From the IMG/VR virus record IMGVR_UViG_642979322_000006: a DNA stretch of 9,106 nucleotides. One strand, 5' to 3'. Origin of the DNA: a virus. Lineage: Duplodnaviria; Heunggongvirae; Uroviricota; Caudoviricetes. Of the stretch, positions 734-9,106 are shown piece by piece. The notes beneath the pieces are model-generated. The model was not told where the DNA came from. It ran no database searches and saw nothing but the letters and a program-made list of their open reading frames with translations. Every line of letters starts with the position of its first letter. Position 1 is the first letter of the stretch. The position numbers were made by a program, and so were the translations under genes.

Positions 734-1657
734 TCAGCTTTTCGCCAGAACGGTGACGGCCTTATCGAGTTTTTGCCATCCGCAATAGGTGATTGCCCTG
801 AACGCTGTAGCGTCATTCTGGAAAAGGCTAACCGCCCCTGATTCGGTTTTTATTACCGCCTCATCAGTTGGGGTTATAACCGTGGCTTCAACGTTAATAA
901 TCAGCTTTTGAGCGTCTATCAGCATCATGCGATCCGCCTGTTCGCTCACAATTACCGGTATTCTCAAAAGCTCTATCTGCCAGAACTCAGCATCAGTAAG
1001 CTGTAAAGCGTTTTCTACGGGCAAGATTAGCGACGACGTGGAAAGCGTGTTACCGTTCGCTATGTGCTTTTTGAAAAGCTCTATGAAGTTTTCGGCCTCA
1101 TCAGCACCATTAAGCACGCCCTCAGGGGATACGCCAGCCACCTCCTGATCACTGGAAAGAAATTTTTTATCTATTTCTTTCACCGATTCCGATGTGATCA
1201 AGTCTCTGATCGCTGAATTTGTACCAGGGGTGCTAAATTTGATTAGCTCGTTATTCAGCATCACAATAGCGCCAAGTTTGCACAGTTTTAGCGCGCTTTC
1301 GTTTACTTCTCCCTCTTTGACAGGGATTTCTTCGGCTTCTTTAAGCCATTTACTACCCTTGCCTGATATTGACTGCAATTTTGCGCCAAACGGAAGATTA
1401 AGCGCGCTGCTGATTAGCTTGCCTGGTACAGACTGCGAAAAAATATACTCGCCAAGCTCTCTTACTATCGGCTCTGCCACCAGCGACGGCATATTATCCG
1501 TAGTCATTCCGGCAACAATGGATTTTTCAAGAAATAACGATACTGCCGGATCATTTCTTTTCGTCATCTCTATAGCGTCAGCATGGCTAAATTTACACGA
1601 TGCCAGCACGCTGGCGGCGCGAACTGCTGGCACGCCTTTCATGTTTTTACAGATCAT
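734..1657 (-). CDS. HK97-fold major capsid protein homolog (Phage_capsid-like), 307 aa from the preferred start
   Basis: Long ORF (track 734..1666). AGGAGG at 1667-1672 is 9 nt from the ATG at 1657 and 0 nt from the ATG at 1666, so 1657 is preferred. C-terminal pattern LFQNDATAFRAITYCGW...AVTVL and mid-protein pattern ALKLCKLGAIVMLNNELIKF resemble conserved HK97-family capsid motifs by eye. Sits directly after terS. Confidence 0.6.
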   Translation of the reverse strand: MICKNMKGVPAVRAASVLASCKFSHADAIEMTKRNDPAVSLFLEKSIVAGMTTDNMPSLVAEPIVRELGEYIFSQSVPGKLISSALNLPFGAKLQSISGKGSKWLKEAEEIPVKEGEVNESALKLCKLGAIVMLNNELIKFSTPGTNSAIRDLITSESVKEIDKKFLSSDQEVAGVSPEGVLNGADEAENFIELFKKHIANGNTLSTSSLILPVENALQLTDAEFWQIELLRIPVIVSEQADRMMLIDAQKLIINVEATVITPTDEAVIKTESGAVSLFQNDATAFRAITYCGWQKLDKAVTVLAKS

Positions 1658-2927: not shown

Positions 2928-3179
2928 TTATTCTCCAGCGCTTTTAACGTTGATGGTTGTTACCTGTTCCGCTTCGGCAATCTCCCGTTCTGTCAGCGTG
3001 GCAAAGTTTGCAGCTGCCGTTGTCATGAATGCGCTTATCAGTTCGGGATTCTCCTTCGCGTATCCTTCCCGTGTGTGGCGGTCGATGATTTTTATCGCCA
3101 CCCTCAGCCAGTGCTCTGTAAGGTCAATGGCGCGGTTATGTGGTTTCTTCTGATTGTTCAATTTTCCTGATGTGTGCAT
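2928..3179 (-). CDS. Hypothetical protein (83 aa)
   Basis: ORF from track, ATG at 3179, followed by the terminator. Only a weak, distant SD (GAGGGT about 12 nt upstream). Preferred over the overlapping plus-strand ORFs 2875..3153 and 2910..3170 on operon context and protein-like composition. Confidence 0.5.
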   Translation of the reverse strand: MHTSGKLNNQKKPHNRAIDLTEHWLRVAIKIIDRHTREGYAKENPELISAFMTTAAANFATLTEREIAEAEQVTTINVKSAGE

Positions 3180-3465: not shown

Positions 3466-5220
3466 TTATAAAAACGCGTCGCAATCATCAGTTGTAATTG
3501 CGTTGGTCTGCGTTACTCCCTTAACTCTCCGCGTAATATATTCATGTCCGTAAACTTTTGCCGCTGGCTTCATGGCCTTGCTGAACTCAGCCACGTTTAG
3601 CGGCTTGCTTCTTCCTGCGTATGCCATAAACGCCAGATAGACGCGGTAAAGGCTGTTTCTGGTCGTGTACTTCACGGAATCGCCACCGCCACCCATCATC
3701 AGGCCGCGTGCTTCCTCCAGAAAATTCAGGAACTGGCAAAACTCAATAACCGGATCTGTCTGTTGCTTTATCGCCAGTGCTTCATCACCATCGCGCTGTT
3801 CCAGGAGTAAAGCCCGTGCCTTTTCAGGGTCGGCAAAATTAGCCAGCAAGCGGCGGATAATTACGGGGATTTCTGCCGCTATCTTTTCCGGTAATTCCTT
3901 GTCTTTTTCGTCCTCCCTTACAATGTTGTCGAACCGGAAAATCACCCGACGGCGTGACACACCTCCGGCCCGCTCGGTGAATATCATCGGGTTGTTGTTG
4001 GTCGCCAGTACCACCGCCCTTATTACCGTCGTGAATCGCTTCTCATATTTCGGGTTAATTTCGACGGGGTCGCCGCCCGTGATTTTCTTGATGCCCGTTC
4101 CTTCGCCTGTATATTTCGGTTGGTCAGCCAGGACGATAAGACGACTCCCGACAACCTGCGCACGTCCACCAGCATCATCAAGCGATGTCATTTCAGCGCT
4201 TACCGTGTTCTGTTTCCCTGCCAGAAGGCTGGCTATGTGCGTGAATGTACTTTTACCGCTACCGCCGTCTCCGGTGGCCTCAATAAACATCTGCCAGTCG
4301 TACCGGTTCGCCATAATCATGTACAGCGCGGCACATATACGCATCATCTTGCGCGGGTCTTTTCCGGCTGCGTGATCAAGCCATTTGTGAAAGTTTGGCG
4401 CGTTGTCGCGAATGTTCTCCCCAGGTGCTGGTGGCGTGTACTCAATGCCGTTGTGCGTGGTGATCCAGTTCTCCGGCGTGTGCGGGGAAAATTCCCCCGT
4501 TTTCAGGTCAAGCGCACCATTGGCGAACGGCAGCAAATCGCCGGACGGCTCCCCCATTGGTTCGGCAATAACTTTTAACGCTTCAACGGCGTTATTGATC
4601 ACGCGTTTGCTGAAAGTGGCCCTGTGCTCTGAATAGATCGCCACCATTTCGCGGCTAAGTTCCATTGTGCTGACCGGACACCATAACCCGCAGCGCCATA
4701 CGTGAACGATTTCACTTTCAGGATGTACGCAAACGCCATCAAAGCGATCGGAAAGCAGCTGAGCGCGTTCACTGTCCGCCATCTGCGAAAGTTGCGCCTT
4801 TTGCTTTACCGGAAGCTCAACGACCAGACCTTCAGAAAGATTCTGGCGCTCACGGGCAAGATATTCGCGCCAGTTCTCCACCTTCTGACCGTGCATTCCT
4901 TCGGGGTAAAAATTTGCATCCTGTACACCTGCCGCCGCCAGCTTCTGACCAATCGCCTTTATCATTACTGGCGCAAGATATCCGGCCCTGAATATGCGTA
5001 CTGATTTTCGGCCTTCCGGCACAATTTGCAGCTTATCCAGTTCGGATAACTGCTGATCCCCAAGCCACACAGGAGGCTCATTATCTCTGGCTATACGCGC
5101 GTCATGTTCCTGCCACTGTTTTGCATGTGCCCACGCATCACTACCCGCGAAAATAATTACCTCTGTGTCTTTGTGTTTTATTCCGCGTGGTTGTTTTTTT
5201 AAGTTCGGTGCGCTTTTCAT
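3466..5220 (-). CDS. Replication primase/helicase, P4-alpha-like (primase domain plus SF3/D5-type NTPase)
   Basis: 584-aa ORF. Walker A GDGGSGKST (around plus 4240-4270) and Walker B-like RLIVLAD. GAGG 6 nt upstream of ATG 5220. Start overlaps the upstream gene's stop as ATGA. Confidence 0.9.
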   Translation of the reverse strand: MKSAPNLKKQPRGIKHKDTEVIIFAGSDAWAHAKQWQEHDARIARDNEPPVWLGDQQLSELDKLQIVPEGRKSVRIFRAGYLAPVMIKAIGQKLAAAGVQDANFYPEGMHGQKVENWREYLARERQNLSEGLVVELPVKQKAQLSQMADSERAQLLSDRFDGVCVHPESEIVHVWRCGLWCPVSTMELSREMVAIYSEHRATFSKRVINNAVEALKVIAEPMGEPSGDLLPFANGALDLKTGEFSPHTPENWITTHNGIEYTPPAPGENIRDNAPNFHKWLDHAAGKDPRKMMRICAALYMIMANRYDWQMFIEATGDGGSGKSTFTHIASLLAGKQNTVSAEMTSLDDAGGRAQVVGSRLIVLADQPKYTGEGTGIKKITGGDPVEINPKYEKRFTTVIRAVVLATNNNPMIFTERAGGVSRRRVIFRFDNIVREDEKDKELPEKIAAEIPVIIRRLLANFADPEKARALLLEQRDGDEALAIKQQTDPVIEFCQFLNFLEEARGLMMGGGGDSVKYTTRNSLYRVYLAFMAYAGRSKPLNVAEFSKAMKPAAKVYGHEYITRRVKGVTQTNAITTDDCDAFL

Positions 5221-5516
5221 TTCTTGCCTCTGAATCCGTTAATCATGTTTTTCATCTTCTGAATATTGGCGCGTGCTTTCTCCCTGCTGGTGGGCACGTT
5301 ACGCGGTACAGCCTGCACCAGAGAAAAATCACGGTCGAACTGATAAACAGGAATCACGCAATCATATTCGTAGCCTTCACGGCGGTAAGTTACGCGCCGT
5401 TCCTCCACGCCCTTAATCATTACCGTGCCGCCGTACTGGTCGCGGTAAATATCCCCGCGCATAAATTCAGGTTGAGCTTTGCCACTGGCAGTTAAGCCAG
5501 AATATTTAAGTTTCAT
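5217..5516 (-). CDS. Hypothetical protein (99 aa), translationally coupled to the primase
   Basis: ORF from track; ATG 5516 with GGAG about 9 nt upstream; stop TGA overlaps the primase ATG. Confidence 0.6.
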   Translation of the reverse strand: MKLKYSGLTASGKAQPEFMRGDIYRDQYGGTVMIKGVEERRVTYRREGYEYDCVIPVYQFDRDFSLVQAVPRNVPTSREKARANIQKMKNMINGFRGKK

Positions 5517-5948: not shown

Positions 5949-6134
5949 TTACTCCTCATCCTGAATACATGTCACTGTGTGGATAATTACGCCGGATAAA
6001 CCGGCTTTAGCTGATTTGTTAATTACTGTGCTGATTGCAGCCTGGACGTTTTCGGCCTTCACGTTCTGCGTGATGCCAACGGTATAGCCGCGCTTGTTAA
6101 CAGCACGGGAAAAAACGCGGAAGGTTTTAAGCAC
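5949..6134 (-). CDS. Hypothetical protein (61 aa), GTG start
   Basis: ORF from track; start codon is GTG (plus 6132-6134 CAC), no internal Met. Overlaps the upstream ORF by 8 nt. Coding status uncertain. Confidence 0.4.
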   Translation of the reverse strand: MLKTFRVFSRAVNKRGYTVGITQNVKAENVQAAISTVINKSAKAGLSGVIIHTVTCIQDEE

Positions 6135-6330
6135 GGCACACCCCCTGACGAATACGGGCCGCGAATACCATCACGCAGCCAACTGGGGATTGCTGGCGTG
6201 CTTCCTGTTCGCTGGTGGCCTCGATGGTAATCACGCGCGGCTGTGCCGTGCTCAGGGCGATAAAACGCCAGATGTATTTATTCAGGTTGTGCGAGTCCCG
6301 CCCTTGCGGGTGTGTGGTATGATTTAACAT
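6127..6330 (-). CDS. Hypothetical protein (67 aa), first gene of the replication-side operon
   Basis: Internal ATG at 6330 of the track's 219-aa frame, with GAGGT 5 nt upstream. The longer frame is rejected because it would cross the divergent control region and the plus-strand RHH gene. Confidence 0.4.
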   Translation of the reverse strand: MLNHTTHPQGRDSHNLNKYIWRFIALSTAQPRVITIEATSEQEARQQSPVGCVMVFAARIRQGVCRA

Positions 6331-6430
6331 AGCTACCTCGATACTGTTGCTATCGTTGGTTGTTAGACGCCCTGCGAGTGTTCCACCACTGCGGGGCTTC
6401 GCTGTATTTAATGGTTGCGTATCTTCAATA

Positions 6431-6475
6431 TGGTACGTACCATTGGGTTTCAGTTTATAATGGTGGTACGTACCA
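6431..6475. promoter_or_regulatory. Twin 12-bp perfect palindromes TGGTACGTACCA (putative operators) flanking a TATAAT -10
   Basis: Palindromes at 6431-6442 (extends to a 14-bp palindrome at 6430-6443) and 6464-6475, centres 33 bp apart. TATAAT at 6456-6461. The second palindrome abuts the ATG at 6476. Lies in the divergent region between the RHH-like gene and the replication operon. Confidence 0.55.
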
Positions 6476-6658
6476 ATGCAAGAAAAAAATGAGAAACCAA
6501 AATTTGATCGCTCTGGCAGCACAAAGAAAAACATCCGCTTCGAAGACACATTGTTGCAACAAATTAACGAAGTTGCTGGGCCTGGTAATTTCAGTTCATG
6601 GGTTAAAAATGCCTGTCGTGACAAGCTACGCAAAGAAGGCATAGAACCAAAAGGCTGA
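6476..6658 (+). CDS. Small ribbon-helix-helix-like DNA-binding protein (60 aa), possibly YlcI/DUF3950-like
   Basis: ATG 6476 with GGTGG 9 nt upstream. Motif NIRFEDTLLQQINEVAGPGNFSSWVKNACRDKL fits a strand-helix-helix pattern and resembles small prophage regulators from memory. The only convincing plus-strand gene in the window. Confidence 0.55.
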   Translation: MQEKNEKPKFDRSGSTKKNIRFEDTLLQQINEVAGPGNFSSWVKNACRDKLRKEGIEPKG

Positions 6659-6796: not shown

Positions 6797-7021
6797 TTAC
6801 ACTGCCTTACCTGAATTAATGCGATCCCGGCTTTTAACCCATTCCATAACCTCGGACAGCAGCCACCCTACAGAACGACCGCCCAGATTAAGACGTGACG
6901 GAAAGCGCCCTTTTTTCTCCAGTTCGTAGCGTGTAGTGCGGCACACTCCTGTTAACTTACGGCATTCATCCTCACGGATTACGCGATCTGATAGTGATTG
7001 AAATTGTGTATTTTGATTCAT
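6797..7021 (-). CDS. alpA: AlpA-family prophage transcriptional regulator (HTH, excisionase-like)
   Basis: 74-aa ORF. Motif RKLTGVCRTTRYELEKKGRFPSRLNLGGRSVGWLLSEVMEWVKSR matches the AlpA (Phage_AlpA) signature. Position downstream of int is typical. Confidence 0.88.
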   Translation of the reverse strand: MNQNTQFQSLSDRVIREDECRKLTGVCRTTRYELEKKGRFPSRLNLGGRSVGWLLSEVMEWVKSRDRINSGKAV

Positions 7022-7083: not shown

Positions 7084-7116
7084 GTGTGATATCACACTAC
7101 CAGCACGTGATATCAC
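7084..7116. promoter_or_regulatory. Twin palindromes GTGATATCAC (putative operator pair) upstream of alpA
   Basis: 14-bp perfect palindrome GTGTGATATCACAC at 7084-7097 and 10-bp palindrome GTGATATCAC at 7107-7116, centres 21 bp apart. The second overlaps the stop codon of the 257-aa ORF. Confidence 0.45.
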
Positions 7117-7886
7117 TTTTTACGTTTTTGTTGAGATTCACGCCCCAAATACTTTTGCCATGTCTGCCAATGTGTTTTTGGAAATTCTATCCCTCTGGAT
7201 GCAGCTATAGAATCAATTAAATCTGCTATTTTAGGTAATGATTCCGTGTCCAGGTCTACATCACCCATTTCTGGAATAAGTTTAATTAAAGAGTAAATAA
7301 CCTCATTCCTTTTTGACGATGCTTTTGGGCTATCTTCTGTTATCTTCGGGAAGTCTCCCGTATTTTTTATATTATCTAAATCACTAGCCATCACACACAA
7401 ATAGTTAACATCAAATTCATAACCACCCTTACAAAAAACATACATGAGATTATCATCACCATACTTATTCGTAAGATGAGAACATTTTATATATTGTCTC
7501 ATGCTAAATTCGACATCAGCAAAAACATATGCCGGAGTATAATAAAACCCTGATAAGCTGCTAACATAATAACATTTGATAGAATTCCCTACAGGACCAA
7601 TAATGGCACTATCTAAAAATTCAGTGTCACCAGTTAAACCAACTGTAAAATTACTTCCAAAAACAGCAGATTCATCATTGAAAGGATATTTTATTAATTC
7701 TTCCTCATTACAACCATTGATAAAATGACATAATGAAAAATTGAATTTTTTAGCATCAATTTTTGGTATATATACAGAAATATTAAGAGCACCTATATAT
7801 GCGTAATGATAAAGATCTTTTATTGCACAGCCTAACTTTTCTGCCGCTTCAGGTAACGGATAATAGAGTCTTTTAGGTAATTTCAT
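7113..7886 (-). CDS. Orphan hypothetical protein (257 aa), AT-rich cargo gene between int and alpA
   Basis: ORF from track. ATG 7886 overlaps the int stop as ATGA; AAGGTGG 4 nt upstream. Visibly lower GC than flanking genes. Rich in Y/F/N/K/C, acidic helical C-terminal region, no motif I can assign. Confidence 0.75.
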   Translation of the reverse strand: MKLPKRLYYPLPEAAEKLGCAIKDLYHYAYIGALNISVYIPKIDAKKFNFSLCHFINGCNEEELIKYPFNDESAVFGSNFTVGLTGDTEFLDSAIIGPVGNSIKCYYVSSLSGFYYTPAYVFADVEFSMRQYIKCSHLTNKYGDDNLMYVFCKGGYEFDVNYLCVMASDLDNIKNTGDFPKITEDSPKASSKRNEVIYSLIKLIPEMGDVDLDTESLPKIADLIDSIAASRGIEFPKTHWQTWQKYLGRESQQKRKK

Positions 7887-9106
7887 TTGGCCACCTTCAG
7901 CATAACAATATTTTCATGATTTCCAGCCAGCACATCGAGACGCTCAACCCATAGATTAAGAGCGTCACGTTTTGCATCAAGATAACGGGAGTGATTATAG
8001 ACTCGTTGCATTCCTGGCAACTGGTGCGCGGTAAGCTGCTCCACAACGTGCGGTTCCACGCCTAAATCGTTCAGCATCGTTGTAAACGTGTGCCGGATGT
8101 CGTGCAACGTCCAGGGGGCTTGATTAATGCGTCTGTGTGCCGTTCTTCCGTACTCTGATACGGATGATTGCCCTTTCAGTTCTCCGAGCAATAATCCCGT
8201 GTGCCTGTTCTGCTCCACCAGCTTCATGACAAACGGCAAGATCGCTTCCGGTATTGGCCTGAATATTGCTACCTTCGTTTTGCTGTGTTCTTTCGGCACG
8301 GTCCAGAGCATTTCTTTAAAATCCCATTCCTGGACCTCAGAGCGTCTTAGCTCAGTGGTACGACATCCGAAGACAATCAGGAGGCGAATCAGGGCGCTGT
8401 AGTACGGTGGGTAAATTTTTTCATCAAGGGCGCGTAGTAATTCCCCAAGCTCCTTGTTTGTTAGTACGCGCTCGCTTATTTCTGCTTTTTTCCCAACATC
8501 ACCGACAACCATATCATCAAGAACGTTGCTGATTGCGTATCGTCGTTTTCGGCAGTACTTAAGCGCCTGTTTGCATACCTGTAGCAAAAATCCGGCTGAT
8601 ACCGGATTACGCTTAGCAAGCTGGTCAAAACAGGCCAGCCAGTGGCGTAGCTCGCATTTTTCCAGTGGCATAGCGCCAATCTGGCTAATTATGTGTTTAT
8701 TGATCCGGCTTTTCAGTGATTCGTAGTCAGTGCGCTTTTCCTTTGCGTACGATTCAAGCCAGTAAGTGAGCGCTTCCTTAACCGTCACGGGGGCTAACGC
8801 GTCCTGTACAGCATGATTAAGTTCATAGCGCGGATTTTTCCCCTCAGCCAGCCAGGCGCGACACTGTGCCGCTTTTTCCCTGGCAGCTTTCAGGCTCAGA
8901 TCGGGATAATTGCCCAGCCTCAGACGTTCCGGTGATATCTGCCTACCAGTTCCGGCCCTGTAAGTGAAATACCAGGTTAACAGGCCATTGGTTGAATGCC
9001 TTACGCTAAGGTTGCCACCATCATTAAAAAAGGTGTTTTTTGTGGTTGGTGATCCGCTTAATTTTCGTAAAAGAGTGTCGCTAAGTCTATGAATTGCCCT
9101 GCTCAT
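7883..9106 (-). CDS. int: Tyrosine site-specific integrase (P4-type)
   Basis: 407-aa ORF. N-terminal region typical of P4-like integrases (FNDGGNLSVRHSTNGLLTWYFTYR...LGNYPDLSLKAAREKA). C-terminal catalytic region with HDIRHTF and RVYNHSRYLD (catalytic Tyr). ATG is at 9104-9106, so upstream signals are outside the window and the true start could lie beyond the edge. Confidence 0.92.
   Translation of the reverse strand: MSRAIHRLSDTLLRKLSGSPTTKNTFFNDGGNLSVRHSTNGLLTWYFTYRAGTGRQISPERLRLGNYPDLSLKAAREKAAQCRAWLAEGKNPRYELNHAVQDALAPVTVKEALTYWLESYAKEKRTDYESLKSRINKHIISQIGAMPLEKCELRHWLACFDQLAKRNPVSAGFLLQVCKQALKYCRKRRYAISNVLDDMVVGDVGKKAEISERVLTNKELGELLRALDEKIYPPYYSALIRLLIVFGCRTTELRRSEVQEWDFKEMLWTVPKEHSKTKVAIFRPIPEAILPFVMKLVEQNRHTGLLLGELKGQSSVSEYGRTAHRRINQAPWTLHDIRHTFTTMLNDLGVEPHVVEQLTAHQLPGMQRVYNHSRYLDAKRDALNLWVERLDVLAGNHENIVMLKVAK

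Follow-up and report, generated by a model that had tools for sequence, protein, structure and literature searches.

A lone, diverged capsid-protein homolog ends the packaging-side operon of a phage-inducible chromosomal island of Escherichia coli O157:H7

Phage-inducible chromosomal islands (PICIs) have five core components: an integrase, a regulator, a primase-replicase, a capsid morphogenesis protein and a small terminase. Elements with all five, called Type A by de Sousa et al. (2023), number 375, and 97% of them are found in E. coli (PMC10085698). Redirection of capsid size or interference with the helper phage is the standard reading of the capsid component in the literature (PMC10085698, PMC6092414). 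Fillol-Salom et al. (2018) described capsid homologs in EcCICFT073 (c1499, together with a decoration-protein homolog, c1500) and in PmCI172 (PMC6092414). In the Staphylococcus aureus pathogenicity island (SaPI) SaPIbov5, the protein Ccm is 24% identical to the capsid protein of its helper, forms the pentamers of small shells of triangulation number (T) 4 and cannot assemble alone (PMC8569155). Here we describe a DNA stretch of 9,106 nucleotides (the window; IMG/VR virus record IMGVR_UViG_642979322_000006) belonging to a 9.2-kb AlpA-type PICI of E. coli O157:H7 that is integrated at clpS-cspD, and in particular the major capsid protein (MCP) homolog that it encodes at 734-1657. Because lone capsid homologs are on record as regular components of E. 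coli PICIs, the finding of one here is correct but largely ordinary. This homolog belongs to the PF05065 (HK97) lineage and is matched to the heads of Shiga toxin (Stx)-type prophages.

The open reading frame (ORF) at 734-1657 on the minus strand encodes 307 residues and is annotated in RefSeq as 'phage major capsid protein' (WP_000562894.1). An earlier note, made from this DNA alone, had seen in it, by motif, a resemblance to an HK97-fold MCP and proposed a Pfam search. The search, now run, supports this assignment: PF05065 matches over profile positions 47-274 of 280, with 28.6 bits, above the gathering threshold of 24.2 bits (expectation value, E, 1.2e-6). There are also matches to the PHROG families 617 and 10, both of major head proteins, and the TIGR01554 equivalog falls just short (26.6 bits, cut-off 27.5). 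Searching 50,697 phage records, tblastn matched 112 of them, all at annotated capsid genes, with 24-27% identity over 93-96% of the protein and E down to 1e-17. An exhaustive profile search with the family gave 2908 relatives among 1.84 billion representative proteins; a word-index search had returned just 6-16, and fewer with a larger alignment. Many of the 2908 are proteins of 630-670 residues, of which only the C-terminal ~330 residues align.

The same family profile matches solved capsid proteins, the MCPs of Bxb1 (2e-9) and of 80alpha (1.5e-6); it was needed to find them, single-sequence phmmer against the PDB having given one spurious match only. The protein contains the elements of the HK97 fold, namely the E-loop region, the spine helix, the A domain and the P domain. 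An AlphaFold model from 6 sequences was of low confidence, with a predicted local distance difference test (pLDDT) score of 51, and its Foldseek matches are HK97-fold proteins with poor template-modelling (TM) scores; the prediction was repeated with 19 sequences. By these comparisons the likeness is genuine: the 307-residue protein is a phage capsid protein copy that has diverged strongly.

The gene ends a tight minus-strand operon in the order terS, 53-residue ORF (1647-1808), MCP homolog. It overlaps the 53-residue ORF by 11 nucleotides, is translationally coupled to it and has a GGAGGA Shine-Dalgarno sequence 8 nucleotides upstream of its ATG at 1657. It is indeed the last gene of the packaging-side operon, as had been noticed earlier, and it lies near terS; directly adjacent to terS it is not, since the 53-residue ORF intervenes.

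The closest counterpart in E. coli phages is part of a larger protein. In a pairwise alignment, island residues 7-304 pair with residues 291-633 of a 645-residue phage fusion of protease, linker and MCP, with 24% identity to its MCP part. The fusion has an S78 prohead protease domain at 48-153 and a capsid domain from about residue 386. As the alignment starts only at residue 291, the island protein corresponds to the capsid body without the protease and the linker of about 125 residues; the linker is presumably scaffold-like. Neither a protease nor a scaffold or delta domain was found, fused to the island MCP homolog or encoded in the island or its flanks.

The 645-residue fusion belongs to a head module with the order HNH-terS-terL-protease/MCP-portal. 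The module is found in a common class of lambdoid prophages of Shiga toxin-producing E. coli, among them PPompW and the Stx1a- and Stx2c-converting O157:H7 prophages. Stx1a, Stx2c and PPompW-type prophages, the very phages that also supply the best E. coli-phage match to the MCP homolog, carry a TerS with 47% identity to that of the island. The TerS sequences agree in their N-terminal DNA-binding part and in the C-terminal part and diverge in between.

A third likeness to these phages lies just upstream of terS. The block of 57 nucleotides at 2378-2434 matches, with 81% identity, the stretch that separates the HNH gene from terS in such a prophage, and the core of this block, CGATCRCCCTGGACACCGC, is exact in the seven loci compared. 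The block is also conserved in related islands of other genera. Kala and colleagues are said to have described in 2014 an HNH gene beside the terminase as a hallmark of HK97-like packaging from cohesive-end (cos) sites. Because of its position and this adjacency of HNH and terminase genes, together with its conservation, we read 2378-2434 as a probable cos core.

Within terS or just upstream of it, the repeat AAAGTTACA occurs in five copies, against 0.10 expected by chance. In helper-type phages and in islands without terS, GTTAAC repeats stand where the terS-bearing island has AAAGTTACA. Such a swap would fit an island TerS with altered specificity, and makes the AAAGTTACA repeats candidate TerS-binding sites. 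Some of the related islands lacking terS have the cos-like block and phage-type GTTAAC repeats directly upstream of the capsid homolog. These islands keep both block and capsid homolog, so the pair of them is the constant core of the family; the pairing of cos and ccm in SaPIbov5 is the same. Altogether, the alignments show that one type of phage head module shares ancestry with the island TerS, its MCP homolog and the cos-like block.

The features of the window are the following; every substantial ORF is on the minus strand.

86-106, no strand: left copy of the attachment (att) core, TGATAGATAACTATCATTTAT, placed by the overlap of the matches to the K-12 empty site, with the clpS promoter side to its left
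107-733, no strand: non-coding left island end with repeats, from repeat analysis
734-1657, minus: MCP homolog, 307 residues, capsid body only (PF05065, PHROG, tblastn, profiles)
1647-1808, minus: 53-residue ORF, TerS-core-like at profile level (phrog_641)
1820-2308, minus: TerS, 162 residues, Terminase_2 family (PF03592, E 2.3e-10; phrog_641, E 3e-43)
2078-2352, minus: five AAAGTTACA repeats, within or just upstream of terS, candidate cosB-like TerS sites
2378-2434, minus: cos-like block, 57 nucleotides, common to helper-type prophages by sequence conservation
2438-2599, minus: 53-residue ORF resembling the N-terminus of a 461-residue helper-type repeat protein (tblastn, phrog_1289)
2603-2797, minus: 64-residue ORF at the head of the packaging-side module
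2928-3179, minus: 83-residue ORF at the head of the packaging-side module (phrog_1231, function unassigned, E 6e-45)
3466-5220, minus: D5_N/DUF5906 primase-helicase (Pfam domains; phrog_864, E 2e-173)
5217-5516, minus: DUF4222 protein (Pfam, PHROG), in a replication module spanning 3466-5516
6127-6534, minus: Icd-like protein (NF033153, E 1.2e-18; RefSeq annotation)
6797-7021, minus: AlpA-family regulator (phrog_2790, E 4.8e-18; helix-turn-helix regulator in RefSeq)
7113-7886, minus: 257-residue low-GC ORF adjoining the integrase gene, a conserved backbone gene without family assignment
7883-9106, minus: tyrosine integrase (PF00589 and PF13356)

The window is identical in sequence to positions 3782839-3791944 of NZ_CP089270.1, from E. 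coli O157:H7 strain M1300706002. On this chromosome, clpS starts directly to the left of window position 1, and yljB and cspD follow past the right end. Compared with the empty clpS-cspD site of K-12, bases 1-107 match window 0-106 and bases 87-323 match the window-equivalent 9274-9510, the right-hand match beginning 168 bp beyond the right end of the window. The two matches overlap in a 21-bp att core, TGATAGATAACTATCATCTAT; the core is thus duplicated with respect to the empty site, and the inserted element measures 9,188 bp. The window is essentially the complete island, minus about 170 bp of its non-coding right end.

With clpS starting at the window edge and the att core duplicated, nothing of the island extends leftward. 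The possibility raised at first, that the capsid gene marks the edge of an island continuing past position 1, is refuted by these boundaries; an edge of a capsid-forming PICI (cf-PICI) was rejected on the same grounds. The absence of portal, protease and scaffold genes, in turn, was confirmed. No homologs of portal, protease, terL, connector or tail genes were detected when 11 head and tail proteins of a related phage were searched with tblastn against the window and 12 kb on each side, a 33-kb locus; the search matched only TerS and the MCP homolog. This covers the left flank, for which inspection had been advised: within 12 kb it contains neither portal nor protease gene, and no complete head module stands immediately outside the window. 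As regards P4-like capsid-size proteins (Sid, Psu), a Pfam scan of the ten larger ORFs gave no such match.

The gene pair formed by the 53-residue ORF and the capsid gene is found in 220 of 5426 complete E. coli genomes, always at full length and at least 96% identical. Forty carriers sampled across the ranking are largely O157:H7, O55:H7, O26, O111 or bovine isolates, and an O121 strain also carries window-like sequence. At least 80% of the whole window is present in only 29 genomes; compared with the 220 carriers of the pair, this means that the module resides in several backbones. In the O111:H- strain 11128, for example, it sits in a tRNA-Pro island with a RepA-type helicase and a different integrase, where the 64- and 83-residue ORFs accompany it.

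Between four alleles, the window's own not being among them, the ratio of nonsynonymous to synonymous substitution rates (dN/dS, Nei-Gojobori) is 0.10-0.19, pairs with an allele 80% identical in protein to that of the window included. Serratia aquatilis, Serratia marcescens, Klebsiella aerogenes and Arsenophonus nasoniae encode relatives with 39-52% identity; a search for related loci gave one, in S. aquatilis. Wherever their context can be read, the capsid gene closes an int-alpA-replicase island on its att-proximal side or lies close to that end, and other head genes were not called in the vicinity. These comparisons indicate an MCP homolog that is functional and under purifying selection. 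Erosion of a capsid-forming island, which the earlier note had also considered, is contradicted by the dN/dS values, the full length in all 220 genomes and the recurrence in Serratia and K. aerogenes.

Two of the related loci have a tail-gene homolog after the capsid homolog. In L010 (11000-13297) it encodes 765 residues and matches the tape-measure family phrog_2854 over its full length (E 3e-174); in L008 (4038-4622) it encodes 194 residues of the tail assembly family phrog_32 (E 1e-67).

By definition, and not by a SatelliteFinder assignment, the element is a Type A PICI: it has all five components and none of the cf-PICI or phage genes that the type forbids. The integrase gene is at one end with att repeats, AlpA and a primase-replicase are present, and so are a capsid gene and terS. 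Genes for TerL, portal, connector, tail and lysis are absent, the size lies within about 7-15 kb, and some of the small ORFs are without family assignment. The cf-PICIs (EcCIEDL933, EcCI2) differ in size, about 15 kb, and in also encoding HNH, TerL, portal, protease and head-tail connectors, none of which was found here.

A relative by backbone is EcCIIHE3034, from strain IHE3034 (L019, 6457-16225), a published PICI with a lone capsid homolog and one of the elements marked by Fillol-Salom et al. (PMC6092414). It shares the clpS-cspD att site, has an integrase 93% identical to that of the island and the same backbone of alpA, Icd-like gene, DUF4222 gene and primase. Its module differs, however, and is of lambda type: the MCP is gpE-like (PF03864), the decoration protein gpD-like and the TerS Nu1-like, and to the 307-residue protein there is no detectable similarity. 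The same backbone with different modules implies that PICIs of one backbone swap packaging cassettes, the types of TerS and capsid homolog changing together. Such a joint change argues that the capsid homolog would act on the capsid of the matching helper. Adjoining the PICI integration site of IHE3034, between clpA and tRNA-Ser, we also noted a type I-F system of clustered regularly interspaced short palindromic repeats (CRISPR-Cas) with an internal stop in csy2 (L018, 3765-13721).

PmCI172 of Pasteurella multocida likewise belongs to the AlpA-type PICIs of Gram-negative bacteria, carries both terS and a lone MCP homolog, and makes small capsids (PMC6092414). It differs in its host and its contractile-tailed helper, the gene for size redirection was never identified there, and the likeness noted here is in architecture. 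EcCICFT073 also has a lone capsid homolog; it lacks terS, and its c1499 has no known phenotype. SaPIbov5 Ccm and the island protein are 9% identical, too little to establish homology; with no relationship at the sequence level, the capsid gene was acquired independently. Ccm keeps a cleaved delta domain of 87 residues, whereas the island protein starts at the capsid body, without about 290 N-terminal residues of the helper-type fusion. Contrary to SaPIbov5, the island encodes its own TerS, and the helper capsids are here presumably isometric, not prolate.

Two small ORFs of the operon also recall phage head-module proteins. The 53-residue ORF at 1647-1808 matches positions 89-125 of phrog_641, 'terminase small subunit' (E 4e-7), and aligns to the stretch DPIKAMGRIL...LDAAFKLAQFTH of the island and phage TerS, conserved in both as DP...LDAA.KLAQFTH. 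Pairwise BLASTP of the ORF against the phage TerS found nothing, so its likeness to TerS comes from the hidden Markov model match and the alignment. The ORF is also kept upstream of the MCP gene in the related loci L015, L006 and L009. By analogy, it could be a mimic of the TerS ring, in idea like the SaPI protein Ppi.

The other 53-residue ORF, at 2438-2599, resembles the first ~50 residues of a repeat-rich phage protein of 461 residues, with 13 of 23 positions identical (tblastn, E 0.02; phrog_1289, E 0.005). The gene for the phage protein (L002, 7735-9120) immediately follows the portal gene, and its product is itself annotated 'portal protein'; in some phages this type of protein is fused to the portal (phrog_2271). 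In the terS-less islands L008 and L010, a homolog of the 2438-2599 ORF directly precedes the MCP gene.

By analogy with Ccm, and with moderate confidence, we propose that the island protein would co-assemble with the capsid protein of a helper and yield small capsids; here we infer the identity of the helper, the co-assembly and the change in capsid size. A helper of the HNH-terS-terL-protease/MCP-portal class would induce the island, and the operon would be expressed. The island TerS would bring the helper TerL, along with HNH, to the cos region that the island itself carries. The scaffold-less capsid paralog would co-assemble with the helper capsid protein, as SaPIbov5 Ccm does with that of phage phi12. 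The shells would close smaller, at a size that fits the 9.2-kb island once or twice but keeps out a helper genome of 44-65 kb; this would promote transfer of the island and interfere with the helper. Size redirection or interference, as in the standard reading, would fit the island's anatomy. If capacity scales simply, a T=4 shell would take about 43% of a T=7 genome and a T=3 shell about 28%. The island amounts, per copy, to 16-21% of the 44-57 kb genomes of PPompW/Stx1a helper type and to about 14% of a 65-kb Stx2c phage. A T=3 shell with a single copy, or a T=4 shell with two, would be plausible, as arithmetic and not as evidence.

Several points weigh against this proposal. In EcCICFT073, deletion of c1499 changed neither transfer nor interference, and the packaged DNA was all phage-sized (PMC6092414); in the related EcCIIHE3034, the capsid homolog is of lambda gpE type. 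The TerS-encoding E. coli PICIs of that study were not mobilised by resident prophages (PMC6092414), which leaves this class with no known helper. Identity to the MCP of the candidate helper is only 24%, so that the direct helper could be another phage. Unlike Ccm, the island protein has no long N-terminal delta or scaffold segment. Finally, the putative cos is assigned by conservation and position only, and co-assembly and small capsids are put forward only by analogy.

A bolder version, which we hold to be unlikely, takes the whole packaging-side operon as a helper-matched cassette of cut-down head-module parts, exchangeable between PICI backbones as a unit, that would lower capsid size by diluting the scaffold. 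The parts would be a mini-protein from the N-terminus of the post-portal protein, a respecified TerS, a mini-protein from the TerS core and a capsid body without protease and linker; they would adjoin the cos core of the helper, with swapped neighbouring repeats. As the scaffold would be covalently attached to the helper subunits, a scaffold-less paralog would dilute it and give a smaller capsid. Ccm keeps its delta domain, and this mechanism would be distinct from that of Ccm.

The strongest competitor to co-assembly into small capsids is an interference-only or accessory factor that would bind or poison helper capsid assembly, or have a subtle role or none in the laboratory, without redirecting capsid size, the island being packaged as multimers in full-size helper capsids. 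We consider it rather unlikely, though it has a precedent: EcCICFT073 travels in full-size capsids and its c1499 is without detectable phenotype (PMC6092414), and the cos-like block would permit multimers to be packaged between cos sites, as proposed for that island. Purifying selection across genera argues instead for a function that matters; in addition, the MCP homolog is always paired with the cos-like block, even in islands without terS, and the closest architectural analogues, PmCI172 and SaPIbov5, do make small capsids (PMC6092414, PMC8569155). It is quite improbable, on the other hand, that the island protein builds a whole small shell on its own around the helper portal, with the helper protease, as a minimal way of forming capsids. 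The island was found to encode no scaffold, delta-like domain or protease; the scaffold-like linker of the helper, being covalently part of the helper MCP, would not readily serve in trans; Ccm by itself forms no capsids (PMC8569155); and the genes that define cf-PICIs are absent.

PICIs commonly carry anti-phage functions. A defence decoy, poisoning the capsids of incoming non-helper phages with related MCPs to the benefit of the host and apart from any island transfer, would accord with this, and with the enrichment of the gene in lineages of Shiga toxin-producing E. coli (STEC) rich in prophages of the related head type. PADLOC, however, gave no match for the MCP homolog, the 257-residue ORF or the small ORFs, and the gene shares the packaging operon with terS and the cos-like block instead of occupying an accessory hotspot, and co-varies with the packaging type; we regard such a decoy as very improbable. 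Hardly credible at all is a decaying remnant of a cf-PICI or prophage head module, without current function. That a capsid gene stands alone where the element ends, beside repeat-rich non-coding DNA of variable length, does suggest one; yet this idea is largely refuted by the low dN/dS, the intact gene in all 220 genomes, the tight operon coupling with a good Shine-Dalgarno sequence and the same lone arrangement in the 39-52% identical islands of other genera. Nor were pseudogene traces of terL, portal or protease detected by tblastn in the window and its 12-kb flanks.

Lone capsid homologs count among the core components of PICIs in E. coli, but what they do was never shown in that species, and the single deletion tested was without phenotype. 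The present island offers a cleaner test case: its capsid homolog, its TerS and its cos-like block each lead to the same abundant class of STEC prophages, which includes Stx1a- and Stx2c-converting phages. If capsid redirection or poisoning is true, the particle yield of Stx phages and the mobility of the island in enterohaemorrhagic E. coli would be affected.

Among the other genes of the island, the 257-residue ORF overlaps the integrase gene, has a GC content of 31-36% and found no match in Pfam, PHROG or NCBIfam. The K. aerogenes island has a 38% identical homolog at the corresponding place (L010, 5304-6017); this makes it a conserved backbone gene, not cargo. A gene of the YlcI/YnfO family lies inside the island on the plus strand (6476-6658), and the same family adjoins the HNH gene of a helper-type prophage (L021, 2073-2300). 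A promoter and terminator scan was uninformative, with one promoter-like site against 5.9 expected.

The capsid gene is followed by non-coding repeats, as first observed, in the 627 bp at 107-733; Rfam gave no match in the window. An arm-like repeat at 167-239 is common to the right island end. A perfect direct repeat of 38 nucleotides occurs at 257-294 and 617-654, 360 bp apart, and three units of 54 nucleotides lie at 375-521. Two copies of a 26-nucleotide palindrome are found at 572-597 and 694-719, the second just past the MCP stop codon; the palindrome at 692-720 is also kept in the O111 island (L016). The distance from clpS to the MCP stop codon varies by strain, being 733, 860 (L013, 1501-2360) or 979 bp (L014, 1501-2479), and the arrangement of the region varies too.

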